From: Raillietiella orientalis
Taxonomy: Eukaryota
Assembly: GCA_036172245.1 (NCBI GenBank)
Contig: JAYWIR010000043.1
Location: forward strand, 1,240,001-1,304,000
Reading direction: 5' to 3'
DNA: 64,000 nt
In this document: piece by piece, positions 17,968-58,142 of the stretch
How the letters are laid out: each line of letters starts with the position of its first letter
Numbering within the stretch: the stretch's first letter is position 1
Notes under the pieces: model-generated
Seen by the model: the letters and a program-made list of their open reading frames with translations, nothing else
What the model was told of the DNA's origin: nothing
Databases searched by the model: none
Position numbers and translations under genes: made by a program

Positions 17968-18600
17968 GACGCATAGCAGGCAACACCGCCATGCAATGTG
18001 CTCCTTTCTGTGGTCGAGAGAGTGGCACGACCTCCAAATCCAACCGCAAAGGCCGTCTTGCTGCACAAATTGGCACTCTTTGCTCGTCAGTGGGGCGCGC
18101 CAAGAGCACAGAAGGGTGCGCCGAATGATGGGCGGCGCACCTACGAATTCTGCCTGTACGATGAGCAGCAGCCTGTCTCCATGGCTGCACGCGCTCCGTG
18201 TCTCCCCCCTGGGCATGAAGCGCGTTCTTCTAGATGGAACACTGTCCCCTTCCAGTTTGCTGTGCACGGATGGCATCTTTGGGTAGGTTAAGATGCACAA
18301 GGGAAGAAAGTGACCACGTCGAAGGTAACGACGGTCTTATGGAAGCGCTTCGCTTGCAGACGATCCGAATCGTCGCTTGCTGAGGTCCTTCTTTGGCAGG
18401 TTGCATTTTCGAATGGTGTCACGGGCGCTAACGGACGTAGCCTGCGGATGTGCCTTTGCATGTTGGCAGTCAGACTGCCCCCCATAAATACGCTGCTTGC
18501 AATCGGCACGCAGAAAGCACAGCCAGACCGTGGCGTGTGTCGTTGCTTCGACGAAGTGAATGTCGAGATCCTTTTTCACGTAAGCATACCGTTTGAAGGT
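17968..18600 (-). mobile_element. Decayed APE fragment head-to-head with ANK-1
   Basis: KKDLDIHFVEATTH (~DIIxLQETH) and FVQQDGLCGWIWRSCH (~LxDxWRxxH). Same sequence as 42390-43026. Confidence 0.55.
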
Positions 18601-18610
18601 TAGCTTGACC

Positions 18611-20374: not shown

Positions 20375-21499
20375 GATGCAGCAGAAAAATGATGCTGAAT
20401 TTCGTGGACTTCTTCAGCTACAGCGAAAGATTTGAGCACGTGGAGAGGAAGCAACTTTCGAAACAGCTTCACGAAGAGTGTTTCCTTTCTGTTGATACCC
20501 CAAATAGGATCCTTTTCCTCCCTATTACGCACCCCATGTCTACTCCCCCTGAAGCTTCCCTACTGGATCTATTGAAACCGAAACCTGAAGAACGAAGTAA
20601 CCGCCATTCTCAGAAAGTGGTTAATGGAAAGTGCAGCAGGGTCTACCACAGGGGCATGGCTTCTTCCTCGCACTTCACAAGTGATGCTTGTGAAACTGAT
20701 GGGAGAAGCCCACTGGACCATGGAAAAATTCAACCTAGCCGGAACCCTGCACTAGAATGGAAGAGCAGCTCGTGGATGCAGATCGTGATGGATACTCTCA
20801 CCTTCGAAATTTCAATGATGCAGCTCACACCACTTTCATTAAAGTTTAGGCAACATTGCCTGCGTGTTTCGCGTGTTTTGTTTCTTGCACGCAACTTGTA
20901 ATATGGATTAAATTAAAAGAAATTCTTTTCATTGCATGGAGTTCAATAACTGTATGGGATTTGCAAGGAAACATTCGAACGCCAACCTAAATAAAGGATG
21001 CTGTTGGTCAGGCTACATGGTAAGTACAGCAAAAAGGCCTTCGAAAAGATGATGCCGACATCTGGACATCTGGATAAGCCGAGTCCTAGAAATACTCGCT
21101 TTTGCTAAACTCGCGCTCTTTCAAAGATCGCGAAAACGTCTCGCATTATTTGAACAGCTCTATCTCCTGATATGGTTGCTATACTTTATCTCTTGTCTGG
21201 CAGACATAGTAAAATATGTTATAGAGGGAAGGGATCACAGCTTACTTACTGGCGTCCTCAGCATTATCTGAATGATAACTTCCTCTTTTTATTAGCAGCA
21301 TTTTTAGACCTTGTGTCAACTTCCTCATGAAGCTGCAGACGATTGGTATGAGATCGCCGTTTGACTGGCCACTTCCGGCGTCACTATCCCACTCACGAAG
21401 GACAGAGATGAAAGAGAGCTGCACGTAAAATCTCGAGTGACGAGGTGCCACAAGACCTCTCTACCGTTCCTCATCGGAAGTGGGAGGAACGCAGCTAAG

Positions 21500-25761: not shown

Positions 25762-28338
25762 CTGGCGTGGGCAGATTGATCAGTGCGATGTGTGTTTTCT
25801 TTGCTGTTTGCCATCAGTTGAGAAGGTGGGAAGGCGTTCTGAACAGTGAGGCTTTTCATGGATTCCCATTGAACGTTGGTGTGGGTATGAGATGAGAAAA
25901 CACGTCACGGTGATGTAAGCTGGTAGTGGGGAGTTTCTGGAAGGAACAGAATAAGGGAGGTGCCCGGAATACCTAGCTCGAGAAGGAAGAGATGATGGAG
26001 AAGTTATCGAGAGGTGAGGAGGATGTAACGCTTGTTGCAGGACACGGAGTTTGCGTATGCAGAGGAGATTGGAATGTCTCCGACTTTAGAGGAGGGAGAG
26101 AACGATGGCAGAGAACGCTGTGACAGGGCACGAGAGGAGTAATGGATGAAGATCGCTGCATCCAGGAGAAGGTTAGGAGCGTTACCAGCCGGTTACGCCG
26201 GGGCGTTTGTTAAAACCCTACAGAAACGTGGTACGAGGCCCCACTAGCGGCCCACGCACTACCGGCCCACCTGCCGGGACGCAGACCAACGTGACTCTCC
26301 TCGGCAGTGGAGGGTGATGGGGGACAAAACAAAAAGAAAAATAAAATAGAAAGGAAACGAAAAGAGTTTGGAGGGAAGGGAAGGAAGGGATCACCGGCCA
26401 CCGGGAGGTGGGTGCATGCTTTGCAGGATGCCCTCGAGGTCCTTCTTTAGTCCACCCAGCTGGGGCCATCCGGTAGCTCTCTGCGGGAAGCGATCAGCAT
26501 ACGGGATGACGTCCCTCTCGTTGTGAACATCTTCGTCGTCGTGGCCATCGCTCCGAGCCGCCACGATGCCTGGGATGCAGCAAAGTGCTGCCAGGGCTGC
26601 GGTTGGCTGCAGGGCGTCCCGCACGAAGAAGAGGAGCCGGAAAACGTCTCTGGGCGCGCTGCCCACCGGGAGCCCGGGGGCCCATAGGGGACGGAGGGCA
26701 GGGCAGTCAACAATCAATAGGAGGAGGGAGCGGTTAGGAGCGAGTGGAAGGCAAGCGATCATGCGACTGGGTTGCCATTGTAATTCTGGTTCTGCGAGGA
26801 GATGGGTGGACGCAGGAAGTTTCGGAGAGGAAGGATTCGTGGATGAGAGCGAAACTAAGGTGGTATTTGTTTCGATGCCGCAGAGGGATCGAAGCATGAG
26901 ATTCCGGACTGAAGTCTGGAATATTGACTGGAATGGTGGTTGTATTTGGTTTAGGGCCGTGTACGGGACAGGGGGCAGACACGCATTTTCCTACCCCTGT
27001 GAAGATCGGGAATCGCGGCGTTGGGGAGGTCGAATGGTTTGTTTGTGTTTCTCACGGAGACAAGTGCGAGGGAGAAGGAAGAGTAGGCGAGGAAGGTGCG
27101 AGCAGGCGGCTGCAAAGAGTGGTGCGAACGCCGGACAAGGCAGTCGTCGATTCGCTGTGCTCCTCTGCGCAGCGCAGAGGAGGCGCGCACGATGACCGCT
27201 GCTGCGCGTGCGCACGATCGGCCGAGCTGACGTCGGAAGATTGGCGGTAGGCTCGGCGTGTGGCCGGAGAGCTGCTCACGACGCTTCGCGTTTGTGCTCG
27301 CGCAGGTCAGCTGCAGATGGGGGATGGGGGGGGGTCAGCTGCGCGTTGGCCACCGCCGTCCGTCGCCGGCAACGTTGGCGAAGGTCGGCGCGAGGGGGCG
27401 AAGCAAGTTCGCGGCTGCCAGACGGCCCGGAGACGCCGCGTGACAACCAGGAAGCGAGAGGAAGCAACGGAAAGGAAGAAGCGTCGTCGCTCGTGCGAGC
27501 GCAGCTTCCATCGCTGCCTAAGACGGTGGAGACTGCTCTTCCGGAGGCGGCATGGCCGAATTGCGGCAGCGCTCGCGCGGGAGCGTTGCAAGAGACCGCC
27601 ACTTCTCGTGCTGCCGGCGGCAGCTACGGAAGACGAGGATGGGGAAAAATAAGGAAGAAAAATGAGCCTGTATTCCAGGAGGTACGCTGGTTGATGCGGC
27701 GAAAATAATCAAGGAAGCCAAATTTATTCGGCGCCAGCTGTTCTTCGGTGACGCCGAGGAGCAGCGTAACTGCCATTCGAAGCCACTTGTGGCTGCTGCT
27801 CGCTCTCAGGCCAGACAGCAAGTGGGGATTTTTTGCACGGGGAAACGCGGAGCGACGTGCACGAGTCCTCCAGTCGGAAGGAGCCTCTTCCTGGGAACGA
27901 GTCCATGAAGCAGGTTCGTATCGTACATGGGTGCCTTCTTCCGCTGTGGTAGCCGGCGCTTTTACGATGCTGTCACAGCAGTGATACCAGAAGCATTCTT
28001 TGGATTACAAGCTTCCGTTAAGCTTTTCAGATCTGCGTCGTTCAGGTAGCCGGTAATTTTGTTGGTGCAGCAAAATGGTAAATTGGGCAGGTTGCGGAGA
28101 CGAGGAAAGAAACGATCGCACTTTCGTAGCAGCAGCCTACGCTTTCTAGCTTTTCTAAACTTCTTGCCTATCTTGCTAGCATAGATCGGAAATTCTCTTT
28201 GATATTCAGTCGACTCTAACATCTTCAGGTTTCTTTTTCTCCTTGTGAATGCAGCTAGCCTGTTCCTCTCTTTCCACAGAACATCGTGAAGCGGAAAGCC
28301 ATCGGCGATCATCCTGCTCTTCATTTTCTCCACTTCCT
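25762..28338. repeat. Inverted repeat 1, left arm (2577 bp; partner 34091-36667)
   Basis: Mirrored ORF set with coordinate sum 62429. Two substitutions noticed (DSFP/DSVP, NPKN/NPTN). Confidence 0.98.
27962..28338 (-). pseudogene. Antisense duplicate of the last ~125 codons (PRANC region) of ANK-2
   Basis: Peptide identical to the ANK-2 C-terminus except one residue. Truncated at the inverted-repeat boundary. Confidence 0.92.
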
Positions 28339-28419
28339 TTGACAGGGTGCATTTCCTTTACCGTCATCCGGCTCCACGTGCTCCTTCTACCTGGACTGGA
28401 ATATTGGGAATCTTCTGAT

Positions 28420-31400
28420 TTCGTTTCCGTAAAAAAGTGATGAAGTCTATAGTTGTGTTTTTATCACCTTAGTGGTGTTTTCTGGTATTCTGGTTTCTGT
28501 TCTTCAGGACTTTCAGCAAACTCTTGAAACAAGAAAAAAAGATTATTCTTCAGATAGTCAGTAAAAAGGACGTCTGCATTGTCAAAGCTCCCTTTCACCA
28601 TTGCAGTGGTTTTACATTGGGCCAGGTGGAGTAGAGGGGAGACCTTCCCAAACCTGTGCTTCGAGTCTGTGCCTTTGTTACGTGCTTGAACTCCTGGCCG
28701 GACATCCAGAAAGACATTCTGGAACTCCTCTTCCCGCTTGGATGGTCACCCCCGAGTGCGATCGCTGCTGTGTTGCCTCCGCGGAGACGTATGCTCTGTG
28801 TGGGCATCGACCGCGGGCAACCATCCACGGCTACTGAGGCTTTCGCCAAGGAAACGGCATCTCTATAGCCTTTCTCTTGTCTGAAGATCTCGTAGAGATG
28901 GTCGCATTTTAGGCATTGAAAGGATAAACTGCTGATATTCAGGAAGGGATGAAGTAGGAAACCGCTTTGACTACTCAGAAGGGTTCAGCACTGACATTTT
29001 GCGGGAGAAGAGAGGAGAGGCGACTCCGTGATCCACGACCTGTTCTATTGATCTGGGGCTTCCGACAACCAGGGTGAAAAGCTCAGAGCCTTCTCAATGA
29101 CACCTGGCAAAGAACATTCCGGCTAGGAAGAGCCAAGGTGTCAACGTGACGCTACTTTAACACCTCCTTCCTTCTCCATGAATCCATGGAGACGGAATGA
29201 GGTAGCAAAGTAGGTAAGGATCAGTAGCCTCAGCAAAGAACCAGTAACTTCGAGGAGAGCAGGTTCATACGAAGAGACACAATTACTTACCTATTCCTTA
29301 TATTACTAAACAACTGATGGCTGCACTCCTAACTTTGACATGGCAAAGGAAGAACGACATCATGAAACGCAAAGTGGTGAATGGAACTTGAGAAATAAAA
29401 TGGTACCATGCAGCTCTTCTAGTGTGAACACATCGGTGGTGGCAGAAGATCAGTTGGAGCGTTGGTTTCTGCCTCCAGGAAACCTTCCAATTGGAGAAAG
29501 GCCATCCACTTTGGAGGAGCGAGAGAAGCACATGGAGCTCAACTTTTCGGCAATGATGGTTGTCCGTGCAAGATGATAAATCCCTCAGATAGCAAGGAAG
29601 ACTATAAATCGGCGGGCATCTTTGTCGATTTCTCAATGCACATCGTCTCTTACTTTTCTTATGTACTCGTTTGCTGAGTCACGAACATCAGACCACACCA
29701 GACCAACACCAAGTATCAAGAATTATAGCAAAGAGCGTCAGCGTCTCATAGCGTCACGGACCTTTGTTCACGAGCACCAAACTCTCCCAAACTTGGAAAG
29801 TATCGCGTCTCCTTTCTCAACCAGAGCTATCCTCTAGCCTACTACTATTCCCTCCGCCCTAAAAATTCACCTTATATATAGGTGAATACAAGCGGTCCTC
29901 TATACTGGTGTTGAGGTCCAGGTTACAGAGACATTGGCTGCCTCATCCGAATACCCCGAAAGACATACAATGCTGCCGAAATTCCAATCGAATTTTTTTC
30001 ATGGAAATTGGAAGGTCTCCGATCTCCGCGAACGAGTAAGAAACGTGCGCTTCTGAGTGAACTACAAGTGGCCATTACACGACGCTTCGAGACATCTGCT
30101 TGTCTTCGACGAAGCCGTGTAATTCCTTCGAGCCGTTCCGGAATCTTGAAGCACACCGTTTTACCTTTCAAGAGAACATATTCTTGAAAACCATGTCGTT
30201 GGTGTGTTTCGGGGATGCTCTGATCTCAGACAAAAAACGCAACTGATTCCCGGAGATACTCTTTGTGAAGACCTTATATACATCTGCTTCTAACGTGAAA
30301 GTGTAGTTCGGCCTAATTCGGGAGCTCTGGATTTGTAAAGAGTTCTGCAGTCTGCTTCAAAGATGGGACTCAGATGCCCAATAAAGTTTCTATCGCCTAT
30401 CACTTTTTCTATTACTCTGGTGATCTTCTTAGGCGGTTTTGTTAGTCATCCAGCCGAACCTAACATTTACCATAAGTCGCGATTTGGCTGGCCTCTTGGA
30501 AAACAAACGACGCACGCCTCGGATGTATCCTGCAGGCAAAAGCAATCGAAAGGAGAGGCTACTGCGCTGACGAGAGTGAGCCAGTATCAGCCCACGTGGG
30601 ATATTCGAACCACCTACTAGTAGATGGAAAGAGCCACTCTCTTTCGAGGAGTCCAGGTGCTGGCTGGTTTTCCACGATTCATAACGTGATTCACAATGGG
30701 TGCACATGGCACTTAAAGGTCTTCGCTCAGCAATTACTGAACAAATGAAGCACTGGGGTATCTGAAGATTTTCTCCGATGAGACTGCTTGGAAACCAATG
30801 CCCACTCTTCCATTTCAAGAACGTCACCATGCAACAAATTTTTTGCTCCTTCTGTGGAAGGCATGTACAGCACCTCGCGCTCTTCAGCCCTCCTGCAGAT
30901 GTCAACCATTTGTTCTTACTTTGTCAAGTCTAATTTCCATCTGCTGAAACATCGGCAGTGCTTCAAAGCCATAAAGACTGAGCACCATGAAGATGTCGGT
31001 TAGCACGTGAGGGTTCGTTCCTATCTGTTCTTTTTTTTCTTCTTTTGACCTCTCCATCTCCTTTCCGTGTGCCTTTTTTTTTTTTTTTTTTTCCATTTTT
31101 GCTTTCACTCTATAACATGACGAGATATGGCGTTCTTGGAAAATGAAGGTGAAAGGGAGAGGGAATTCAAATGCATCCTTCTCTCAAACCAACGCCTCGT
31201 GTTGGGACCCTTCTGCTGCTTGCGATGGCGAGCATAGCGACGGAATTCGCCCGAAGGGACATTTCCAGTCTTGCCGCGCACGTGGCGTTCCCTGAAGAAC
31301 TGCTTGGCAATAAGGAAACTTTCTGAGCCTCGGCGATCCGAGTCCTCGGAAGGTTTCGGGGTTTTCGAAAAGGCCGTTGAGAACGGCGGAGGAAATGCCC

Positions 31401-31500
31401 CGTGATTTTGTCGAATTCAAATGTTCCACGGTGTTTTCCAAAGGGTGCAAGCAAGAAGACACGAGTAAAATTGTGTTACATCACAAAGGGTCAACTTTGG
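28420..31500 (-). mobile_element. Decayed LINE (ORF1 end, APE, linker, RT) head-to-head with ANK-2
   Basis: Poly-Lys ORF1-like tail, LYMPS (~VYxP), LIGENL (~LIGDFN), RSARFLLVRGDRRPSNFH (~RSR.W...GDRxTKFF), PPIYSLPC (~RPISLL). Confidence 0.55.
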
Positions 31501-31533
31501 AAGACAGGATCCGGAGCATCGGTGCAGTCAAAG

Positions 31534-34467
31534 ATGGACCTCATTCAGTGTGGGATTCGCCTCTTAGTGATCATGAATGAGCAGGACAGAGTCAGTTTGA
31601 GCGATCGTGCACGTGAGCTTGAATTACTCGCTTCCTTGTTGGGGAAAGGGAGAGGCACGCGTGGTTCTTCGTGCCTATGCAACCTGCAAGTGTGGCGTGA
31701 GAGTTTCGTACTGTTCCGTTATGCGTTTGACTACAGTCACTGTGAATGGGTGCTTTCAAGTGATTCTGCCGTGAACGGAATCTGCAGCTCTTCTGAAAGA
31801 CCGCTCCCGTTTGGTGCTTTTAGCGATGACGTGGAAAGTATTGTGTTGCTTAGCAGACACGCTGACTTCGAAGTGGCATGCCGGACAAGACAAGGAATGG
31901 TTGAATTGCTTTTTCGTTACGAATGCTTTCATGTTATGGATGGCAGGGGAGTTAGCCGTCTTCAGGGAACCATGCGTCAGACGTACCCACGGATTCTTCC
32001 GGATCTTTCGGATCACGGAGCTCATGTTAACTCTGCTTGCATTCCGGCGATCGTAGGAGGTTCGACACGACTTTGTCTGCCCGCTACTGTACGAAACAGT
32101 GGAGAGGTCGCCATGTTTTCAGAAAGTCCAACGGAGTCCGATGCCCAGGGAATCACTAGGACGGTTCCTCTTCACAGCCATTCCGAGTACAGGCATTCGC
32201 AATTTGCCCAGAGCGATTTAAAACACGGAACTTTTTCTGACCCTGTGTGCACCGAAACCTGGGAAGGTTGTACATCGCTCCAGCCGACCCTTGGAAAGGG
32301 GAGAGAAAACATTTTCGAACTGATTTTGAATCACGGATATGTTGTCAACGACAAGGACGACTTGACTCAACTTGGTATTACTGTTCAGAATAGGGATGAA
32401 AAGAATGCCAGTAATCTTCTGGATCTTACTGCTGATGTTGATGTCAGAAGCAAGAGTGATAGCGTTCGTCCTCATCATTCACTTAGTGAGAAACGCGCAT
32501 CAGTGGCTGAAGATCATTTGCAAGACTTGGCTAACTGCGATGTCGTGGAGAAGGGAGTTGCACTTCATTCTTCAGCTCATGGATATGAAAAGCCATATGG
32601 AATGATGCTTGATGTCCTGAAACATGGTTTTACTGCTGCCCATACATGTGGAAGCCATTGCGGAGTAACGCATTTTGATCTTGGGCAGAGATATCTGGAG
32701 ATTGCTGAGTACTTTCTAAGGTGGGTTGCTGATTCCAGCAGTGCAGGTACCTCAACTTGGGAAAAAATTGGCGCGCCGCCTTGTAATGCAGTTCAAAGCA
32801 GGCACGAAGAAGTAACTGAGTTCCTTGAAACCGGCGTCCACTTCCGGAACGGAATGACTGCATGCCATGCAGCAGAAAGTGAACATCCGGAAATCACTAG
32901 GCTGCTTTTGGAAAGTATAGCTCACATCAAGGATGGTTTCAGAGAGCTTCGCTTTCCTCCTAGCCCGCAGTGCACCCGAGTTGCTGGGATGCTTCTCGAA
33001 CTCAGCGGTGGCAAGCACGAAGGACTCAGGATCAGACGCAACGTCCTCAGCATTGCTGCTGAAAGCGGATTCGAGAGAGTGGCGAAACTTCTGCTGGAGT
33101 GCGGCACCGATGTGGATGCCAAGTCGGAAGACGGGCAAACCGCTCTCTGTGTTGCTGCTCAGACGGGTTATGGGGAAATAGTGGAGCTTCTCTTGGAGTA
33201 CAACGCTGACATCAACGCAAGGACCAACACTGGCGCAACGGCTCTCCACGCTGCCGCAGAATGCCAGCACGAGAAAGTCGTAAAGCTGCTCTTGGAATGC
33301 AACGCCGACGTCAATGCTCGGTCGAAGGATGGGAGGACTGCACTCCACATTGCTGCGCAGACGAGAAATGAGAATGTCATCAGACTTCTTTTGAGACACA
33401 ACGCAGACGTGGATGCGAAGCGCGTCGACGGGACGACCGCACTCCACATTGCCGCTCAAACGAGAAACGAGAAAGCCGTAAAGCTCCTTTTGGAGTACAA
33501 CGCGGATGTGGATGCTGAGCGTGGTGATGGCATAACTGCGCTCCACGTGGCCGTCCAGAAAAAGAATGAGAAAGTTGTAAATTGCCTGTTGCAATATCAA
33601 GCCGACGTTAATGCCAAATGCAAGGATGGCACGACTGCGCTCCACATTGCAGCTCGAAACAGGAACGAGAAAATTGCACAGCTTCTTCTGGAAAGAGATG
33701 CCGATTTGAACCCGAGATGTGAAGACGGCGCCACCCCGTTGCACATTGCTGCTTCAAATGGAAATGTAAGAGTCGTTGCAGCTCTTCTTGAATATGGAGC
33801 GGACGTGAATGCTGAGACCAGCAGGGGAGAGACACCACTTGAATCAGCTCTTGATGGGTTCGAAGAGTGGTTCAAGCAAATGCCTTATGATGATGGCAAT
33901 TACGATTCTCATTATAATTATCAAAATCATCATCATCGTTCCATCTTCTCTTGCGAACTGAGCGCCAAAGTCCTCATACAGCACATGGTCCAGTTGAGGT
34001 GCAACCATCTGTACGTAAGTGAAAAAAATTGGCAGTCTGCTGCTAGCGAGGATCGGAAAGACTTGCGAACCTTCCAGATTCAATGCAAAGAGGAAGTGGA
34101 GAAAATGAAGAGCAGGATGATCGCCGATGGCTTTCCGCTTCACGATGTTCTGTGGAAAGAGAGGAACAGGCTAGCTGCATTCACAAGGAGAAAAAGAAAC
34201 CTGAAGATGTTAGAGTCGACTGAATATCAAAGAGAATTTCCGATCTATGCTAGCAAGATAGGCAAGAAGTTTAGAAAAGCTAGAAAGCGTAGGCTGCTGC
34301 TACGAAAGTGCGATCGTTTCTTTCCTCGTCTCCGCAACCTGCCCAATTTACCATTTTGCTGCACCAACAAAATTACCGGCTACCTGAACGACGCAGATCT
34401 GAAAAGCTTAACGGAAGCTTGTAATCCAACGAATGCTTCTGGTATCACTGCTGTGACAGCATCGTAA
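31534..34467 (+). CDS. Long ankyrin-repeat + PRANC-like protein (ANK-2); start uncertain (ATG at 31534 or 31573)
   Basis: Frame is open from 31402. About 9 clean repeats at ~33040-33855 follow degenerate repeats. PRANC-like CKEEVEKMK...FPIYASKI...RRLLL...LPFCCTNKITGYLNDADL. Confidence 0.9.
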   Translation: MDLIQCGIRLLVIMNEQDRVSLSDRARELELLASLLGKGRGTRGSSCLCNLQVWRESFVLFRYAFDYSHCEWVLSSDSAVNGICSSSERPLPFGAFSDDVESIVLLSRHADFEVACRTRQGMVELLFRYECFHVMDGRGVSRLQGTMRQTYPRILPDLSDHGAHVNSACIPAIVGGSTRLCLPATVRNSGEVAMFSESPTESDAQGITRTVPLHSHSEYRHSQFAQSDLKHGTFSDPVCTETWEGCTSLQPTLGKGRENIFELILNHGYVVNDKDDLTQLGITVQNRDEKNASNLLDLTADVDVRSKSDSVRPHHSLSEKRASVAEDHLQDLANCDVVEKGVALHSSAHGYEKPYGMMLDVLKHGFTAAHTCGSHCGVTHFDLGQRYLEIAEYFLRWVADSSSAGTSTWEKIGAPPCNAVQSRHEEVTEFLETGVHFRNGMTACHAAESEHPEITRLLLESIAHIKDGFRELRFPPSPQCTRVAGMLLELSGGKHEGLRIRRNVLSIAAESGFERVAKLLLECGTDVDAKSEDGQTALCVAAQTGYGEIVELLLEYNADINARTNTGATALHAAAECQHEKVVKLLLECNADVNARSKDGRTALHIAAQTRNENVIRLLLRHNADVDAKRVDGTTALHIAAQTRNEKAVKLLLEYNADVDAERGDGITALHVAVQKKNEKVVNCLLQYQADVNAKCKDGTTALHIAARNRNEKIAQLLLERDADLNPRCEDGATPLHIAASNGNVRVVAALLEYGADVNAETSRGETPLESALDGFEEWFKQMPYDDGNYDSHYNYQNHHHRSIFSCELSAKVLIQHMVQLRCNHLYVSEKNWQSAASEDRKDLRTFQIQCKEEVEKMKSRMIADGFPLHDVLWKERNRLAAFTRRKRNLKMLESTEYQREFPIYASKIGKKFRKARKRRLLLRKCDRFFPRLRNLPNLPFCCTNKITGYLNDADLKSLTEACNPTNASGITAVTAS

Positions 34468-38084: not shown

Positions 38085-38903
38085 TTGTTCTTACTCCGGA
38101 TCGAAGACGATGCCATTTTTTATGGATTCTATGAATCGACATTGTACGACTTCTTGGTGGTCTCGGGTGAAGTCGGCAACTACGATCGGCCCTCCCTTAT
38201 AAATGTGAGCCGCGTCGGCCTTCTTGCAAGAGTGCATGTAGATGGCATTCCTTTTGAGATATAGACGTTCTGCCATCGTTGTCTCGCCGGCGTTTCCTAC
38301 TGGATCGTAAAACCAGTATATGTTTCTTGGGTGGGTAGGTCTCCTGATGATGTCCAGTGGATCCATCTGCCATCCTCTCAGACGTAAGGTAGCTCGTGGG
38401 TTTTTGGCAGTCCTGTTTCTTGTGAGGCGGAAGCGTTCTTTTATGATGTTTATACTCCGAGCGTAAAATTTCGTGTGATGTTGGAGTATGAAGCTTTGAT
38501 CTGCTCCTGCTTGTATGAGTTGAAGGATAGGATGCGAGTTTATGAAATTCATGTATGCAAATGCCTGTTGTTCGTAGGACGCTGGTTCTACGTCATCGGC
38601 GATTGCGCCGAAAGTGCAAGCAGCTTGTCAGATTTCGTGCAGTACCGTAAGTTGCTTTGAGGCGACCCTTTGCTTTTTTCCAAGTGGCATTTTGCAAATG
38701 GTTTTCTATGGAGCCCTGGTAGTGTTTTTGGTTCTATGAAGCTGCATGTATCCCTGGAGATGTTGAGTTCCCGTTGTGGCAGTTTCTTTTCCGAAGACGG
38801 CGAACTTGCAATTGCTGCAACACCAAGTCTTGATTTTGGCTAGTTCGTCTTCGCTGTAGTTGTTGAAGGTGATGCCATATGGACTATTCTTCAACCGGTG
38901 CAT
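38085..38903 (-). pseudogene. rep: Endogenous CRESS-DNA virus replication initiator (HUH endonuclease + SF3 helicase), disabled
   Basis: Motif I ITFNNY, motif II QHLQGY, motif III NLRYCTKSD after HLEKSKGS. Helicase IYWFYDPVGNAGET (Walker A, K>E), IVVADF (Walker B), IESIKNGIVF. Frameshifts near 38741 and ~38615; stop at 38091-38093. Confidence 0.93.
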
Positions 38904-38994
38904 GGTGAGACTTGTAGAAATTCACTGAAGGTAATAACCGCGGATCGGTCGTAGTTGGTGCCTTATGTACGCCGTAAGTGCGTAGTTTGTGGCG

Positions 38995-39026
38995 CAGCAA
39001 TCCGGTGAGTATTACCCAGTTTGCTG
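38995..39026 (+). promoter_or_regulatory. CRESS rolling-circle origin stem-loop with nonanucleotide GAGTATTAC (39007-39015)
   Basis: NANTATTAC-type motif in the loop of CAGCAATCCGG / CCAGTTTGCTG (9 of 11 pairs), between divergent rep and cap. Confidence 0.88.
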
Positions 39027-39273
39027 AGTAACCGATCCTGTGGGGAATTGATAGGCAGCGCGGTATGGGTGTTCTGTTTCTGGCTAAAGCCCACGATCCT
39101 GAAGGACTCGAAGTATGCGGAAAGCCTTCAGAGCTCCCAGATGGGTGGCTGGTGAAACCCGACCTCGTGGGGGGATCAGATAAGTCGGTTGGGCGGAGCG
39201 CACCAGCTGGGGTGTGGAGTACAAATGGTAAGGGGGTCAATAAAAAAATGGCAGTAGGCTGTCAAGCAGCTGA

Positions 39274-39615
39274 ATGGTGTCGTCTATGCGTTTTCGCTCG
39301 CGGAAGCGGAAAGGAGGGCAAACGTCTTTCGTTAGTAAAAGGAGGAAGTTAGTAAGACGTGGACACAGTACATATAAAAGGCGTCGAAGGTTTAATCGGA
39401 AACGTAGACGCGTCCGCATATTGCGAAATCCGAGATGGAAGTATGCGAAAGCTGTTTGTGCAGTGGAGCGCGCAGGTTTGCTGCAGGCTTTGCATTACAG
39501 TTCTGAGCGTATGATGGCTGCTGATGCCATAAATTGCTGTTGGATGTTTATGTAGGCCGAGCAGTACTGGAGAGGGTTGTTGAAATTTGTGAATTTGGAA
39601 CAAATGGGAAGGCCC
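39274..39615 (+). pseudogene. CRESS virus capsid N-terminal fragment (arginine-rich motif), truncated/frameshifted
   Basis: MRFRSRKRK...KRRKLVRRGHSTYKRRRRFNRKRRRVRILR, divergent from rep across the origin. The 3' end is approximate. Confidence 0.78.
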
Positions 39616-39927
39616 CGCGAACTCTGGTCTCGGCCTCCTGACGCTTTTGAGGACGAAGCGCCAGCTCCAGTGTACAAGATTAGCCCCGGAAGAGATGGTA
39701 CGGACCACCCATCGCAGCGTCATAGCCAGCCTCCTGGCCAAGAGAGCAGGCGGTGCCGAGTCACTCGATGGGTTCCTCGTGCATGGCCACCGACAGTTGG
39801 TGCGATGTGCTTATCTACTCCTGCAAATGATTTCCTCGCTCCAGGAGAAGCCAGATCGACTTCAGGCCGCCCGCCAACAGCAGCGCCTGAAAACAGGAAA
39901 AAGACTGGCAATCTGAAAGATCAAGAA

Positions 39928-42900
39928 TTCAGCAAAGCAGTTCTTTTTTTAGGATTTCGCGTATTCAGATGTCGGCATCACCTTTTGGGAGAGTTTCCCA
40001 TTCTCATCATGTAGCCTAACCATCAGCATCCTTCCCAGATTGGTGGCGATGCGTTCGAAAGTTCACTTGCAGCCCCCTATTCAGTTTTTCAATTGCATGC
40101 AATGAAATGTAAAAGTTACTATTTATTGCATGTCAGAATTTTTGCTCAGGAAACAGAAACATTCAGTCATAGTCTCTTAGCTGGACTTCAAAAGTGGTGT
40201 GAGCTGCATCATTGAAATTTCGAAGGTGAGAGTATCCATCACGATCTGCATCCACGAGCTGCTCTTCCATTCTAGTGCAGGGTTCCGGCTAGGTTGAATT
40301 TTTCCATGGTCCAGTGGGCTTCTCCCATCAGTTTCACAAGCATCACTTGTGAAGTGCGAGGAAGAAGCCATGCCCCTGTGGTAGACCCTGCTGCACTTTC
40401 CATTAACCACTTTCTGAGAATGGCGGTTACTTCGTTCTTCAGGTTTCGGTTTCAATAGATCCAGTAGGGAAGCTTCAGGGGGAGTAGACATGGGCTGCGT
40501 AATAGGGAGGAAAAGGATCCTATTTGGGGTATCAACAGAAAGGAAACACTCTTCGTAAAGCTATTTCGAAAGTTGCTTCCTCTCCACGTGCTCAAATCTT
40601 TCGCTGTAGCTGAAGAAGTCCACGAAATTCAGCATCATTTTTCTGCTGCATCTCAATCACAGGTGTCCACGTTCTGCAGGCCACGTATGTAACTTTTCAG
40701 GTCTTGATCCCGCAAGCAATTGCTGAGGCTTTCAGCAAACGTGTATGGCAGAATGCGGCAGCTGTTGTGAGCAGAATGGAAAACTCTGTAAAAATCCTCC
40801 AGTAGCTCATTCCTTTTTACTGCCTTCTTAATCTGCTGTTTTATCATACTTGCAAACATTGGAAATTCCTCTTTGTACCAATCCGATTTGAGGAAGTCAG
40901 CCATGCTGGAATTCCTCATGTATGCAGACACCTTCTGAACACTTCCAGTTAAGATATCGTGCATGAAGGAGTTTCCAATTTTCCAGTGCTTCATCAACTC
41001 CAGTTCACATTCACAATCTCTAACAAACTCTATGGTGTCATTGAATTCAGAAAGGGGCAATGCATTTGACATACTTAAAGAGTCCCCGATGCTGCAGATC
41101 TTGCAAGCATGCTGTATTATGAGCTTAGCTACAGGTACTATCAACTCTCGCCCATAATACCTACTACCACAAAGGGTATCAAGAGCCACATCCAAGGCTG
41201 TTGCGTTATTCCCATTTACCACATTCATATCAGGCTCGTGTTCTAGCAGTGTTTCAGCAACTTTTATGCTTCCACAAAAAGTGAGCATATGAAGAACTGT
41301 TGTTCCATATGTGTCCTGAGCATTGATATCTGCTTTGTAATCCAATAGGAGCTTTACGAGTGTATCACTTTTATTCTCGACGGCAAGATGAAGCGGAGTC
41401 CTCCCGTCCTTTCTCTTAAAGTTCACACGTGCTTCGTGCTTCAAAAGAAGTTCCGCTATCTCAACTCTCTGATACTTAACAGCTTCGTGTAGAGGAGTTG
41501 AACCCTTTCCGTCGATGGCACCGATGTATGCATTAGCATCTAAGAGAAGTTTTACTACTTTCTCATTTGATTTCCTAGAAGCAACATGAAGGGCGGTTGC
41601 TCCATCCATGCTCTTCGAATTGACATTGGAATGGAAATCCAAGAGAAGTTTTACTAATTCTGCATTTCTTTTAGCCGCGGCGATATGGAGTGCCGTCGTA
41701 CCAAGCACGTACGTGGAGGAAGCATTTTTTTTGTTTCGAAAACGTGGTTTCCTGGAAGTAACGCGAGAAGATGTGCCTTCGGTTGCTGTGGCTTCAGCTG
41801 AACCTTGAAGACGTCCAGAATACAGGGCTCTTTTGAAGTATTTTTCCAAATAGTGTGGTATAAGATTGATGCCCGTAGGAAAATTCGCATCAACTCCATG
41901 TTTGAGAAGTTCCTCAGCGATCGCTAGAGATCCTTCTTCAGCAGCCATGTGCAGAGGAGTGATCCCATTTTCGTCCACAGCATTAGCAACTGCTCCCCTA
42001 CATAATAGCAATCTAGCAATTGCGCGGTTCTCGTGCTTTGCAACCAAATGAAGGGCACTCCTTCCTCTTTCATCTGCACTATTTACATTCTCATCGTTAT
42101 TCAAAAGAAAATCAACTTTCGACCGGTCTCCCAGAATCACAGCTATGTGCAGTGACGTGAGAGATTGGTCGTAAGGTGTCTTTAAAGCCGAGTCCCCCTT
42201 GCCTAAGAGACACTCGACCACGCGACAAGGATCATCTTTAAAAGCATCTCGAAGTAGCAAGTAAGTTTTCCATATTTGCGGTGTGTATATGCCAAGGGAT
42301 TTTAGAATTTCGTTCACTCTTTTTTCATTTCCTTCCTTGATTACACTCACTACTCTCTCAAATAAATAAGCACTCTTATTCATGGTCAAGCTAACCTTCA
42401 AACGGTATGCTTACGTGAAAAAGGATCTCGACATTCACTTCGTCGAAGCAACGACACACGCCACGGTCTGGCTGTGCTTTCTGCGTGCCGATTGCAAGCA
42501 GCGTATTTATGGGGGGCAGTCTGACTGCCAACATGCAAAGGCACATCCGCAGGCTACGTCCGTTAGCGCCCGTGACACCATTCGAAAATGCAACCTGCCA
42601 AAGAAGGACCTCAGCAAGCGACGATTCGGATCGTCTGCAAGCGAAGCGCTTCCATAAGACCGTCGTTACCTTCGACGTGGTCACTTTCTTCCCTTGTGCA
42701 TCTTAACCTACCCAAAGATGCCATCCGTGCACAGCAAACTGGAAGGGGACAGTGTTCCATCTAGAAGAACGCGCTTCATGCCCAGGGGGGAGACACGGAG
42801 CGCGTGCAGCCATGGAGACAGGCTGCTGCTCATCGTACAGGCAGAATTCGTAGGTGCGCCGCCCATCATTCGGCGCACCCTTCTGTGCTCTTGGCGCGCC

Positions 42901-44266
42901 CCACTGACGAGCAAAGAGTGCCAATTTGTGCAGCAAGACGGCCTTTGCGGTTGGATTTGGAGGTCGTGCCACTCTCTCGACCTCAGAAAGGAGCACATTG
43001 CATGGCGGTGTTGCCTGCTATGCGTCCTCCGCCGCATTTGATTGGAAGCCGATCGAGGGTCCGGTGGACAGGTTTCCAAGTGTTCCGAGAGTTTGCTGAA
43101 GGTTGTCATGGAAGAGGTTTTCGTGGTACGCATCCGTCCAGGTTGCGGGGCGACTCTTGCATGGTTTCACTTGGCAGCGAGGAGAAATTTTCAACTTTTC
43201 GCCAGCTCACCCGTGTGCGTCCTGTTGACGTGACACGGAATCACTTCGCTCTCATGCACCATCCAGATGCGTAGCGGACCTTGTGCCAGAGGATGCGCGA
43301 GACGCTGCCTGGGTCGCACGTTCGGCATTTCTTGCCACATTTCTTCGCTGGGAAGTCGAGGCGAGCGCGGAAGTGGAAGAAGGCGAACTGCTCGCGTGGT
43401 TTGCAGCTGAAAAGCGAGATCGGTGAGACGCGGAGGGACAGTGGCCACGCTAGGGCATGGCGAGCTCTGGATGTCAACATGGATGTTGAGAAGAGAATCA
43501 GCGTTCTTGGAGAAAGCGTTTATCGCTTACTCTTGTTTGCTGGCAAGTGTTCTCTGTAGTTTCGCCCACTTTCGGTGGCAGTGTTCGTCTCCCATGCAAA
43601 AAAAATGCCTTGCATCGTCCCCCTGAATTGCTCTTCAGGGAAGGCCTACGCCTGCCTGTATGGCTTTCCCGTTTTCCTTCTTTGGCTTCCAGCTCCGCGT
43701 CAGCTACAGCTTAATTTTCTATTCGGCTGTGGTGATTGCTTCGCTCGCGGCCAACGCCGTTTGCTGGCTCCTCGGCCATGGCCTTCCGCGATGGGTGCCA
43801 TCGAACGATCTGGACTCAGGTCACGCTGAGAAAGCGGGTCAGGTGATGTAAGGCGATGATGCAACGGCGACTGCCTCGAGGCCATGTGAATCGGAGCCCG
43901 CCCACTGCTCAAAGTGGTGATCGGTCCGCAACGCGCCGTGAGATGCGAGGCAGGACAGATGCCTTGATCGGTGCTTCCTGACTCGGACGTTTCGGTAGTC
44001 ACGATGCGGGTTCCAGCTGCTCATTCCTGCTTTCTTCATCCTCCGTGACCTCACGACTGTGCGTTGTTTCAGCACGTTGAGATGTGCGTCTACAAATTGT
44101 GGGCGGTTTCGTTGGGAACCGGCGGCTGCTCTGCATGTTTCGCCCGAGGGCAACACGGGAAATCGCGCATGCACTGACAACGCCTGCAGAACGTGCCTGA
44201 ACGTCATCAGCAAAGAGAAGATCTTTGAAGCTATGCGTCAGGAACTTCACTTGCATGCTGTGAGCT
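39928..44266. repeat. Inverted repeat 2, left arm (4339 bp; partner 53799-58137)
   Basis: Mirrored ORFs with coordinate sum 98065. A handful of substitutions noticed near the outer end. Confidence 0.98.
40653..42383 (-). CDS. Ankyrin-repeat + PRANC-like protein (ANK-3, 576 aa from first ATG)
   Basis: Intact ORF; one residue different from ANK-4 (NVDTCD vs NVDACD). Confidence 0.92.
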   Translation of the reverse strand: MNKSAYLFERVVSVIKEGNEKRVNEILKSLGIYTPQIWKTYLLLRDAFKDDPCRVVECLLGKGDSALKTPYDQSLTSLHIAVILGDRSKVDFLLNNDENVNSADERGRSALHLVAKHENRAIARLLLCRGAVANAVDENGITPLHMAAEEGSLAIAEELLKHGVDANFPTGINLIPHYLEKYFKRALYSGRLQGSAEATATEGTSSRVTSRKPRFRNKKNASSTYVLGTTALHIAAAKRNAELVKLLLDFHSNVNSKSMDGATALHVASRKSNEKVVKLLLDANAYIGAIDGKGSTPLHEAVKYQRVEIAELLLKHEARVNFKRKDGRTPLHLAVENKSDTLVKLLLDYKADINAQDTYGTTVLHMLTFCGSIKVAETLLEHEPDMNVVNGNNATALDVALDTLCGSRYYGRELIVPVAKLIIQHACKICSIGDSLSMSNALPLSEFNDTIEFVRDCECELELMKHWKIGNSFMHDILTGSVQKVSAYMRNSSMADFLKSDWYKEEFPMFASMIKQQIKKAVKRNELLEDFYRVFHSAHNSCRILPYTFAESLSNCLRDQDLKSYIRGLQNVDTCD

Positions 44267-44619: not shown

Positions 44620-45680
44620 AACTCAGAGGCACACTTTGTCTGATGAACGACGGCCGCATTGAACCACTGCACATAATGCAGGGAAGTACAAGATAAACTC
44701 GTTGGCACCTTTGTACTTTTCGGGAATTCTACTCCTGCGACCTGGACGCTGCTTGCTTGGACAACGATCGATTTTGATTTGGCTGCTTGGGCCGACCGAG
44801 GTCAGCGGCAGATTCACCAGGGATGCCACCACGTTTCCCAATCGCGCGTCGCACAGTTTTGAGCAGCAGAAATCCACCTGCAGAGAGAACGAGGTGGTGG
44901 TGGTGGTTCTTCGATTGCAGAGGTGGGCAGGGCCGCCGCTTCCTTGCGACGATGCTCCCAGCTCGCCGCGAGCAGTCTGGAAGACGAGGTTCGCAGCGCC
45001 ACAGGCGCTTTTCTTGGCGCCATGTATCGGTTCGTATTTTTCCTGAGCCGGTGCGTAAAGCTGCAACGTTTTAGCGACTAAGTCGGGTGTTGGGAACCAG
45101 AAGAAGCAGCTTCCAACGCTTTTCCTAAGGGGATTTCCATTCTGTTTCTGAACGAATGGCAAAGAGAGCGATGGCGAGATGCTTACCGGAGACATGATGA
45201 AGACATGATGCAACTGTCCTTGGTGCATCGCGTCAGCCAAAATTCTTTCATTTTCCGCTGGCTGCAAAGATGACTTTTCCATCTGATTCCTGAAGCTCAA
45301 GGAGCCAGGAGCTTACAGGATACGGACTTTCGAGTCTGGAAATCCCGCTAGATAACCATGGATCTTAGGGGAAAGCGCTCCGACAGAATGAGCTCATTTA
45401 CATCTGGAGATTGGAGCAGCGCCCGTGGAAATTCCTGTCTTTGAATTTCGGTGGCACCTCCCAGGAAGCAGCTCCGACGGTTGCCACATGCGAGGACAGG
45501 AGCGCCAACTCTGCAAAGGGCAGGAAGAGGAATTCGTTTCCTGCCTGCTGTCCCAAGGATGGAAGCAAGGATTGCGAATTCAAGGTGTCTGCAGGCGAGG
45601 ATTCGCAAGGAAAGCAGCAAGGAACGCCCGGGATCGGTCCCAAATCTCGCTCGCCGAAATCACGAAAGATCAGAAAAAAT
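44620..45680 (-). mobile_element. Probable decayed LINE RT fragment
   Basis: LVAKTLQLYA (~WIxxLY) and GASSQGSGGPAHL (~GxxQGxPxSxxL); weak. Confidence 0.4.
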
Positions 45681-53798: not shown

Positions 53799-56700
53799 AG
53801 CTCACAGCATGCAAGTGAAGTTCCTGACGCATAGCTTCAAAGATCTTCTCTTTGCTGATGACGTTCAGGCACGTTCTGCAGGCGTTGTCAGTGCATGCGC
53901 GATTTCCCGTGTTGCCCTCGGGCGAAACATGCAGAGCAGCCGCCGGTTCCCAACGAAACCGCCCACAATTTGTAGACGCACATCTCAACGTGCTGAAACA
54001 ACGCACAGTCGTGAGGTCACGGAGGATGAAGAAAGCAGGAATGAGCAGCTGGAACCCGCATCGTGACTACCGAAACGTCCGAGTCAGGAAGCACCGATCA
54101 AGGCATCTGTCCTGCCTCGCATCTCACGGCGCGTTGCGGACCGATCACCACTTTGAGCAGTGGGCGGGCTCCGATTCACATGGCCTCGAGGCAGTCGCCG
54201 TTGCATCATCGCCTTACATCACCTGACCCGCTTTCTCAGCGTGACCTGAGTCCAGATCGTTCGATGGCACCCATCGCGGAAGGCCATGGCCGAGGAGCCA
54301 GCAAACGGCGTTGGCCGCGAGCGAAGCAATCACCACAGCCGAATAGAAAATTAAGCTGTAGCTGACGCGGAGCTGGAAGCCAAAGAAGGAAAACGGGAAA
54401 GCCATACAGGCAGGCGTAGGCCTTCCCTGAAGAGCAATTCAGGGGGACGATGCAAGGCATTTTTTTTGCATGGGAGACGAACACTGCCACCGAAAGTGGG
54501 CGAAACTACAGAGAACACTTGCCAGCAAACAAGAGTAAGCGATAAACGCTTTCTCCAAGAACGCTGATTCTCTTCTCAACATCCATGTTGACATCCAGAG
54601 CTCGCCATGCCCTAGCGTGGCCACTGTCCCTCCGCGTCTCACCGATCTCGCTTTTCAGCTGCAAACCACGCGAGCAGTTCGCCTTCTTCCACTTCCGCGC
54701 TCGCCTCGACTTCCCAGCGAAGAAATGTGGCAAGAAATGCCGAACGTGCGACCCAGGCAGCGTCTCGCGCATCCTCTGGCACAAGGTCCGCTACGCATCT
54801 GGATGGTGCATGAGAGCGAAGTGATTCCGTGTCACGTCAACAGGACGCACACGGGTGAGCTGGCGAAAAGTTGAAAATTTCTCCTCGCTGCCAAGTGAAA
54901 CCATGCAAGAGTCGCCCCGCAACCTGGACGGATGCGTACCACGAAAACCTCTTCCATGACAACCTTCAGCAAACTCTCGGAACACTTGGAAACCTGTCCA
55001 CCGGACCCTCGATCGGCTTCCAATCAAATGCGGCGGAGGACGCATAGCAGGCAACACCGCCATGCAATGTGCTCCTTTCTGAGGTCGAGAGAGTGGCACG
55101 ACCTCCAAATCCAACCGCAAAGGCCGTCTTGCTGCACAAATTGGCACTCTTTGCTCGTCAGTGGGGCGCGCCAAGAGCACAGAAGGGTGCGCCGAATGAT
55201 GGGCGGCGCACCTACGAATTCTGCCTGTACGATGAGCAGCAGCCTGTCTCCATGGCTGCACGCGCTCCGTGTCTCCCCCCTGGGCATGAAGCGCGTTCTT
55301 CTAGATGGAACACTGTCCCCTTCCAGTTTGCTGTGCACGGATGGCATCTTTGGGTAGGTTAAGATGCACAAGGGAAGAAAGTGACCACGTCGAAGGTAAC
55401 GACGGTCTTATGGAAGCGCTTCGCTTGCAGACGATCCGAATCGTCGCTTGCTGAGGTCCTTCTTTGGCAGGTTGCATTTTCGAATGGTGTCACGGGCGCT
55501 AACGGACGTAGCCTGCGGATGTGCCTTTGCATGTTGGCAGTCAGACTGCCCCCCATAAATACGCTGCTTGCAATCGGCACGCAGAAAGCACAGCCAGACC
55601 GTGGCGTGTGTCGTTGCTTCGACGAAGTGAATGTCGAGATCCTTTTTCACGTAAGCATACCGTTTGAAGGTTAGCTTGACCATGAATAAGAGTGCTTATT
55701 TATTTGAGAGAGTAGTGAGTGTAATCAAGGAAGGAAATGAAAAAAGAGTGAACGAAATTCTAAAATCCCTTGGCATATACACACCGCAAATATGGAAAAC
55801 TTACTTGCTACTTCGAGATGCTTTTAAAGATGATCCTTGTCGCGTGGTCGAGTGTCTCTTAGGCAAGGGGGACTCGGCTTTAAAGACACCTTACGACCAA
55901 TCTCTCACGTCACTGCACATAGCTGTGATTCTGGGAGACCGGTCGAAAGTTGATTTTCTTTTGAATAACGATGAGAATGTAAATAGTGCAGATGAAAGAG
56001 GAAGGAGTGCCCTTCATTTGGTTGCAAAGCACGAGAACCGCGCAATTGCTAGATTGCTATTATGTAGGGGAGCAGTTGCTAATGCTGTGGACGAAAATGG
56101 GATCACTCCTCTGCACATGGCTGCTGAAGAAGGATCTCTAGCGATCGCTGAGGAACTTCTCAAACATGGAGTTGATGCGAATTTTCCTACGGGCATCAAT
56201 CTTATACCACACTATTTGGAAAAATACTTCAAAAGAGCCCTGTATTCTGGACGTCTTCAAGGTTCAGCTGAAGCCACAGCAACCGAAGGCACATCTTCTC
56301 GCGTTACTTCCAGGAAACCACGTTTTCGAAACAAAAAAAATGCTTCCTCCACGTACGTGCTTGGTACGACGGCACTCCATATCGCCGCGGCTAAAAGAAA
56401 TGCAGAATTAGTAAAACTTCTCTTGGATTTCCATTCCAATGTCAATTCGAAGAGCATGGATGGAGCAACCGCCCTTCATGTTGCTTCTAGGAAATCAAAT
56501 GAGAAAGTAGTAAAACTTCTCTTAGATGCTAATGCATACATCGGTGCCATCGACGGAAAGGGTTCAACTCCTCTACACGAAGCTGTTAAGTATCAGAGAG
56601 TTGAGATAGCGGAACTTCTTTTGAAGCACGAAGCACGTGTGAACTTTAAGAGAAAGGACGGGAGGACTCCGCTTCATCTTGCCGTCGAGAATAAAAGTGA

Positions 56701-58137: not shown

Positions 58138-58142
58138 CTGCT

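Follow-up and report, generated by a model that had tools for sequence, protein, structure and literature searches.

A probable dead endogenous CRESS-DNA virus that keeps its origin region and two divergent gene starts in the genome of Raillietiella orientalis

Viruses whose circular, single-stranded DNA genome codes for a Rep (CRESS-DNA viruses) are mostly known as metagenomic circles without a known host, and a chromosomal fossil of such a virus is direct evidence of past infection of the host lineage. Fossils of this kind derived from rep are, in the available text of two surveys, widespread in invertebrates, with hosts that include ants, mites, and molluscs (PMC3198968, PMC6069186); Liu et al. 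2011 report 302 Rep-like versus 3 capsid-like sequences from 35 eukaryotes (PMC3198968), and the many invertebrate CRESS fossils described in the accessible part of Dennis et al. 2018 are all from rep, with cyclovirus-like cases in an ant and in mites (PMC6069186). In Entamoeba, whole CRESS genomes are integrated and tie a metagenomic lineage to its host (Kinsella et al. 2020, PMC7493932, in the sections available), and a cressdnavirus lineage is reported to be tied to vertebrates via fossils and poxvirus gene capture (PMC10193959). Here, we describe a locus in a 64-kb stretch of DNA from Raillietiella orientalis (assembly GCA_036172245.1, contig JAYWIR010000043.1, positions 1,240,001 to 1,304,000 of the forward strand), henceforth the window, in which all coordinates below are numbered from its first letter. 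About 1.5 kb of this DNA, at roughly 38097-39600, is most readily explained as the endogenous and now dead remnant of a small ambisense CRESS-DNA virus (Cressdnaviricota), a reading to which we assign a probability of about 85%.

The insert comprises ~270 codons from the start of rep, the entire 5' intergenic region, and, on the opposite strand, the first ~93 codons of a capsid-like (cap-like) gene; both genes lack their 3' parts, and nothing is left of the 3' intergenic region. The G+C content is ~0.47 overall within the insert versus ~0.60-0.64 outside it at both ends, and a composition scan places the left step, from 0.49 to 0.64, at the rep stop (~38100) and the right step, from 0.42 to 0.60, at ~39600. 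The last low-G+C bases, which belong to neither strand in particular, occupy 39556-39600 and are followed by DNA of G+C ~0.60, so that the right junction probably lies here; with steps at ~38100 and ~39600, the bounds of 38085-39615 proposed in the initial annotation of this DNA are good to ~15 nt. The window as a whole is low-coding, eukaryote-like DNA, and in the assembly the insert is flanked on both sides by ankyrin genes. It is disabled by two frameshifts, the truncation of both genes, and a change in the Walker A motif.

As a Rep-derived sequence in host DNA, the insert resembles the invertebrate CRESS fossils, which, in the available descriptions, are usually far from the named families and in some cases carry frameshifts or stops. 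It differs from these surveyed fossils, which are almost only rep as far as those descriptions go, by keeping the origin hairpin and the start of a divergent second gene. With the Entamoeba integrations it shares a source in genomic DNA and the native gene layout (PMC7493932, in part); those integrations, however, are complete and have near-identical exogenous relatives, whereas here ~1.5 kb with broken genes survives and no exogenous relative above ~48% identity was found. The insert is thus a real, non-functional viral fossil of an already-known kind, and a more complete one than most. Such elements are common in invertebrate genomes and already catalogued by the hundreds, and this one is broken and probably neutral. 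What is unusual in it is the retention of the origin and of the second-gene start, along with the lack of a close sampled relative: with the origin and both gene starts kept, the layout of the donor genome is recorded beside the Rep sequence, and the insert could allow a match with free viruses of that group of hosts.

The broken rep gene and its relatives

The rep gene lies on the minus strand, at 38094-38903, and is split over three frame pieces, A, B, and C, each of which is recovered among the 1912 open reading frames (ORFs) of the window by a profile of 201 related Reps, 365 positions long. Piece A (ORF 38706-38921; from its Met codon, 38718-38903, minus strand) carries motifs I and II of the HUH endonuclease and aligns to profile positions 31-88 (E 5.9e-15). 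The Met codon is at 38903-38901, motif I, ITFNNY, at 38856-38873, and motif II, HLQGY, at 38748-38762. Piece A also matches the Pfam domain Viral_Rep above its curated cut-off (30.2 bits against 26; E 5.4e-7) as well as several Rep endonuclease domains among the solved structures, the best being PDB 7kii_A (E 5.2e-7). Piece B (ORF 38588-38839; Rep part 38624-38743, minus strand) covers the region from motif II to motif III and motif III itself, YCTK, at 38633-38644; it aligns to profile positions 80-119 (E 2.9e-5) and, weakly, to the end of the Viral_Rep model (positions 56-81, E 0.029). Motifs I, II, and III of rolling-circle replication (RCR) accordingly occur in the correct order. Piece C (38094-38627, 178 residues, minus strand) spans the linker/oligomerization region and the SF3 helicase up to motif B', aligning to profile positions 138-285 with an E-value of 5e-41.

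Since the three pieces are collinear on the same Rep proteins and lie in different frames, they represent one rep gene broken by two frameshifts. The first frameshift zone, 38718-38743, read on the minus strand, holds a run of five T at 38725-38729 of the plus strand; the second, at about 38613-38626 on the same strand as the gene, falls between motif III and the segment starting with FG and contains no homopolymer. In an alignment with 13 relatives, the Walker A motif at 38280-38297 reads GNAGET, with Glu at 38283-38285 in place of the Lys of GxxGK that is present in 13/13 of them, and the Walker B motif (Asp152, 38172-38174) and IESIKNG, which ends at 38112, are conserved; motif B' aligns as well. 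Motif C and the Arg finger are missing from piece C, roughly the last 80 profile positions being lost, because homology and low G+C both end at ~38097. The loss of the helicase end would therefore signify a truncated pseudogene, not a different family. The initial annotation had described a minus-strand rep with RCR motifs I-III and an SF3 helicase, disabled by two frameshifts and a Lys-to-Glu change in Walker A, and each of these claims is borne out by the matches and alignments above, with all three pieces matching the profile of CRESS Reps collinearly. An active Rep would be impossible from this locus because two frameshifts, the lack of the Walker A lysine, and the lack of motif C concur, and the locus is best read, from its sequence, as neutral DNA.

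As a single-sequence query, piece C has no match in Pfam, PDB, a word-indexed protein search, or IMG/VR. A phmmer search with piece C against 1.84 billion representatives yields 1553 matches at E<=1e-3, 170 of them at E<=1e-10, with the best at 5.7e-22. Pfam domains were assigned to 40 of the 150 phmmer matches listed; Viral_Rep is found in 35/40 and RNA_helicase in 30/40, and the sampled matches are therefore two-domain CRESS Reps. The ten best matches checked sit on contigs of 1.2-3.9 kb, and one of these (P0001) bears the label of a bacterial metagenome-assembled genome (MAG). Profile-seeded scans bring in 60 IMG/VR loci and 15 metagenome loci, at 25-42% identity to the helicase piece, and the relatives include metagenomic circles of 2-3 kb at 30-48% identity. 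Among the IMG/VR loci are ten circles of ~1.0 kb, the sole gene of which encodes a 286-aa Rep with 31-36% identity to the helicase piece (E ~1e-14); no tool names these circles, which, by their size and Rep length, we take to be nanovirus DNA-R. Named profile matches include Crucivirus-224, McMurdo Ice Shelf pond circular DNA virus, a 'Cressdnaviricota sp.' MAG, and Chemarfal virus 268. Profile matches also occur on three very long contigs (P0233, P0167, and P0205): one, designated 'MREP-like protein' by its source, on a contig of 58 Mb from the clam Mya arenaria, and two on ENA contigs of 0.33 and 0.83 Mb. The Reps on very long contigs are likely to be further endogenous CRESS Reps of other eukaryotes; two of them, P0167 and P0205, group in the helicase tree with P0001, P0019, P0128, and P0091, not with the window Rep.

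Separate trees for the two domains, as proposed in the initial annotation, were built from rows that comprise no named references of Circoviridae, Genomoviridae, or other families. The helicase tree comprises 96 of 98 rows (two with fewer than 100 filled columns were dropped) and 149 columns, and the endonuclease tree 90 rows and 99 columns, with X over the frameshift zone. In the helicase tree, a long branch (1.56) within a polytomy leads to the window, which is excluded from the clade, with 100% support, that the ten 1-kb circles form. In the endonuclease tree, it stands beside P0018, L005, L008, and L009 with a support of only 8, the identity between its endonuclease and that of L008 being 48% over 77 columns. 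Neither tree places the window firmly: together, the helicase and endonuclease trees do not show different kin for the two domains and fix no family.

The helicase wording, W.YD..GN.GK and IE.IKNG, is like that of nanovirid master Reps and alphasatellites. For Circoviridae, including the genus Cyclovirus, the comparison was with 7lar_A, a full-length Rep of 314 aa with a solved structure, which we take to be that of porcine circovirus 2: piece C does not match it at E<=10, and the 201-Rep profile reaches the endonuclease half only of that structure, to which piece A matches with an E-value of 0.13. Grouping with the Circoviridae Reps is accordingly not supported and, provided that our identification of 7lar is right, the helicase would not be of the circovirus type. 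These results agree with the earlier suggestion that the helicase wording is that of nanovirus-like and unclassified CRESS Reps, given its resemblance to the nanovirus-sized Rep-only circles and to unclassified Reps. To speak of an unclassified lineage, as was also suggested, is fair, with no relative above ~48% identity to the window Rep in any collection searched. The donor would then belong to a lineage that is unsampled at close range, its endonuclease nearest to those of metagenomic circles of 2.1-2.3 kb and its helicase apparently of a type shared with nanovirus-sized Reps.

Origin region, genome layout, and the capsid-like reading frame

Between the start codons of the divergent rep and cap-like ORF lies the 5' intergenic region, 38904-39273 (370 nt, assigned to no strand). 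It holds, at 39007-39015 on the plus strand, the nonanucleotide GAGTATTAC, which is the sole occurrence of NANTATTAC on either strand of the window, where dinucleotide shuffles give an expectation of 1.69 per window and ~0.01 for the 370 nt of the intergenic region. The nonanucleotide belongs to an origin-like hairpin at 38995-39026 (plus strand) with a 10-nt loop, TGAGTATTAC, and 11-nt arms (38995-39005 and 39016-39026) in which 9/11 positions pair. Just 5' of the hairpin, on the same strand, there is a direct repeat, CGTAGTTGGTG at 38950-38960 and CGTAGTTTGTG at 38981-38991, the copies of which are 10/11 identical at a spacing of 31 nt; these look like iterons, that is, a putative Rep-binding site. 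Two further features occur in the same region. A second nonamer containing TATTAC, GGTTATTAC, lies on the minus strand at 38932-38940, intergenic and 70 nt from the main hairpin, and does not fit NANTATTAC; and a perfect 8-bp inverted repeat, GGATCGGT / ACCGATCC, at 38942-38949 and 39031-38, encloses the main hairpin.

The cap-like ORF runs from 39274 to 39555 on the plus strand (93 codons), its ATG directly following a stop and its own stop being at 39553-39555; it is much shorter than a full capsid gene. Its best 50-residue window contains 25 R/K, which ranks it first among all 787 window ORFs that reach 50 aa (median 9, 99th percentile 17), and its first 55 residues include no acidic ones. 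An arginine-rich N-terminus is a hallmark of circovirus-type capsid proteins in the description given in PMC8622408, as partially available. The cap-like ORF has no homolog in Pfam, in a scan of IMG/VR, or in the ESM Atlas, where no match was usable; the segment 39000-40400 matches none of the ORFs of the 60 IMG/VR loci, and phmmer with the cap-like ORF against the 931 ORFs of the 75 related loci gives a best E-value of 0.34. An in-frame ORF that follows the cap-like stop (39556-40014) also matches nothing, is G+C-rich, and is read as host flank.

Overall, rep is on the minus strand and the divergent cap-like ORF and the nonanucleotide are on the plus strand, so that NAGTATTAC falls within the 5' intergenic region and shares its strand with the cap-like ORF. 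An ambisense genome with the origin on the strand coding for the capsid protein (Cp) is the cyclovirus polarity as described in part of PMC8622408, and the cyclovirus-type polarity postulated for the locus at the outset agrees with that description. The likeness to cycloviruses extends, as far as the same source goes, to the ambisense arrangement of rep and cp, the NAGTATTAC hairpin in the 5' intergenic region on the Cp strand, and, in the case of the cap-like ORF, the Arg-rich N-terminus of the Cp. The nanovirus-sized 1-kb circles differ from the window, with rep alone, the nonanucleotide on the rep strand, and a helicase clade with 100% support that excludes the window. A place in Nanoviridae or Alphasatellitidae does not fit either, since another, divergent ORF accompanies the rep of the window and the nonanucleotide is on the strand opposite rep. 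The metagenomic circles L005, L008, and L009 and the protein P0018 (2.1-2.3 kb) have the same two-domain Rep and the nearest endonuclease domains; in contrast to the window, they have TAGTATTAC on the strand of rep, they stay apart from the window in the helicase tree, and no capsid shared between them and the window was found.

How much weight this layout can bear is indicated by a survey of 56 related loci of <=3.6 kb. A hairpin-flanked NANTATTAC lies on the rep strand in 17/56, including the ten 1-kb circles and the near relatives L001-L003, L005, L008, and L009, and on the strand opposite rep in 19/56, of which four (L027, L029, L034, and L037) have GAGTATTAC itself; in the remaining 20/56, a simple scan found no hairpin-flanked NANTATTAC. 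The polarity of the window is common among these viruses and says little on kinship, as layout does not track phylogeny. Rosario et al. 2018 likewise consider polarity to say little on kinship, in the available part of the text (PMC6186406).

Route of integration and competing explanations

The likeliest route to such a locus would start from the double-stranded replicative form of an ambisense CRESS virus, a ~1.5-kb piece of which would have been joined into host DNA between ankyrin-repeat genes. Because both genes have lost their 3' parts and the 3' intergenic region is missing, the circle would have been opened far from the origin, on the opposite side, leaving an insert centered on the replication origin. 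Either a sub-genomic linear fragment would have been captured or both ends would have been trimmed later; the data would fit equally well with a full-length integration that was trimmed afterwards at either end. The source was presumably genomic (replicative-form) DNA, not a transcript, because one mRNA cannot hold two divergent gene starts together with the origin, and in this respect the original interpretation of the locus seems well founded. Given that the nick site is intact inside the insert and not at a junction, host end-joining at a chromosome break appears likelier than Rep-catalyzed joining at the origin. In the available text of Kinsella et al. 2020, Rep-mediated integration is considered likely for CRESS viruses generally (PMC7493932). 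With the origin intact inside the insert, not at the junction, the locus offers a small case study of how circles enter chromosomes. After insertion, rep would have decayed, acquiring two frameshifts, losing the Walker A lysine, and lacking motif C.

Homopolymers are a context in which some assemblies make indel errors, and this is one of several points that weigh against the proposed identity and history of the insert: the first frameshift, at a five-base homopolymer, may be an assembly error, in which case the gene is slightly less broken. The fold of the hairpin is weak (z -1.86, 9/200 shuffles being as good), and the minimum-energy fold of its 76-nt context does not choose the hairpin; of the stem-loop announced in the initial annotation, the unique, intergenic motif and the 9/11 pairing arms hold up but the fold itself is weak, which fits an eroded stem and is not independent proof. 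Similarly, the proposed capsid start stands as an Arg-rich plus-strand ORF, the first of 787 in R/K content, but the capsid identity, with no homolog behind it, is suggested by position, strand, and composition. The end-joining mechanism is one that we infer. At the left end, finally, an in-frame stop (38091-38093, minus strand) comes just past the last profile-aligned residue, at the G+C step, and 33/157 tblastn alignments continue through it. The stop may have arisen by mutation in the viral gene, or it may already lie in the junction or in host DNA; it is present in frame, as had been noted, but as a lesion of rep it is open to question, since it may belong to the junction instead of the viral gene. 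An extension of rep past the stop to ~37950, which these tblastn alignments suggest, is countered by the profile, the shuffles, and the G+C content: the profile alignment goes no further than FDP, at position 285 of 365, an X at the stop to allow read-through brings no gain (137.3 versus 137.9 bits without read-through), and the stretch of 46 residues past the stop does not outscore its shuffles when compared with Rep C-termini, 97, 200, and 239 of 300 shuffles reaching the three measures used.

Could the insert not be part of this genome at all? CRESS DNA is a frequent contaminant of samples, and reads of a free or defective CRESS virus, or of contaminating viral DNA, might have been mis-joined into a host contig in a region that is repeat-rich, contains inverted duplications of 99.9% identity, and is hard to assemble; the homopolymer in one frameshift zone would be in keeping with such an artefact. 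We consider it improbable, however, because the piece is truncated in both genes and is not a full circle, the second frameshift lies outside any homopolymer and is accompanied by the Walker A change, the viral stretch occurs only once in the window, away from the edges of the duplications (the nearest being at 39928), and the sharp G+C steps at both ends fit real junctions. Pfam Viral_Rep is also found on plasmids, and this, along with the bacterial MAG label of one top match (P0001), could be taken to indicate that the Rep comes from a bacterial plasmid, a Helitron-like element, or another HUH replicon. That origin seems extremely improbable for an HUH domain fused to an SF3 helicase, with matches on contigs of 1-4 kb, as is typical of CRESS genomes, and with a NAGTATTAC hairpin between rep and a divergent ORF with an Arg-rich arm, the arrangement of CRESS viruses as given in the accessible part of PMC8622408.

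A different question is whether the fossil, although viral and truly integrated, was kept for a host function, for instance, as a source of antiviral small RNAs at a locus that collects viral fragments. Typical small-RNA clusters carry transposon domains, whereas none was found in the 124 ORFs scanned here; moreover, the protein reading frame is destroyed, and two viral fragments in 64 kb may be a matter of chance, so that such a role appears quite improbable in spite of a second Rep-like trace 5 kb away (44787-44996, plus strand), which scores above 200/200 shuffles. The reading of the insert as a dead, neutral viral element could be extended in another direction, one that we hold to be rather unlikely as a whole: the insert would represent an unsampled Cressdnaviricota lineage of which no other trace is anchored in a host, one that combined a nanovirus-type helicase with a cyclovirus-type ambisense genome (origin on the cap strand) and infected the arthropod carrier of the ankyrin-PRANC genes and, together with the older trace, it would reflect repeated germ-line capture at one locus, possibly feeding antiviral small RNAs.

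The ankyrin-repeat cluster and a second Rep-like trace

The insert lies between two intronless ankyrin-repeat genes, at 31381-34467 (plus strand) and 40653-42410 (minus strand), the latter with a weak PRANC domain and with its best full-length matches, 25-34% identical, in insects (ants, chalcid wasps, a fly, a lacewing, and a bee). Taken by themselves, these matches would make an arthropod, probably an insect, the likely host. These two genes belong to a cluster of intronless ankyrin ORFs that also comprises 55655-57412 (plus), 18584-20374 (plus), 58137-59213 (plus), and 27965-28357 (minus), several of which have a PRANC domain at the C-terminus that scores weakly (E 8.7e-5 to 1.1e-3) and stays under the Pfam cut-off. 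Outside the Rep pieces and the cap-like ORF, Pfam detects no transposon or further viral domain in the 124 ORFs of the window; the ORFs scanned include 17 in the flanks or overlapping the insert and 87 further ones across the window, among which one more PRANC remnant was found.

The ankyrin-repeat genes are carried on segmental duplications, both direct and inverted, that are 95.6-99.9% identical. By self-comparison of the window, 39928-44266 is an inverted copy of 58137-53799 at 99.9% identity; a third ankyrin copy occupies 17964-20836, 25762-28338 recurs in inverted orientation at 36667-34091, and 185-2986 is repeated at 6223-9026. They reflect either very recent duplication within the ankyrin-PRANC cluster or an assembly in which a repeat-rich region was collapsed or mis-joined. 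None of the duplications includes the insert, and the self-comparison reveals no empty, pre-insertion site in the window, the nearest duplication starting at 39928, ~330 nt past the insert.

Some 5 kb from the insert, a second and much more decayed stretch that resembles a Rep helicase runs from 44787 to 44996, perhaps to 45041, on the plus strand in G+C-rich DNA, and reads WWWWFFDCRGGQGRRFLATML where the relatives have IYWIYDPVGNHGKTYLATYL. It is detected by tblastn with P0005 (E 7e-6), with the 201-Rep profile giving only an E-value of 0.15, and its mean local-alignment score is 39.6 versus 25.7 (standard deviation 0.86) for shuffled sequences, 0/200 of which score as high. This trace is probably an older, independent Rep fossil.

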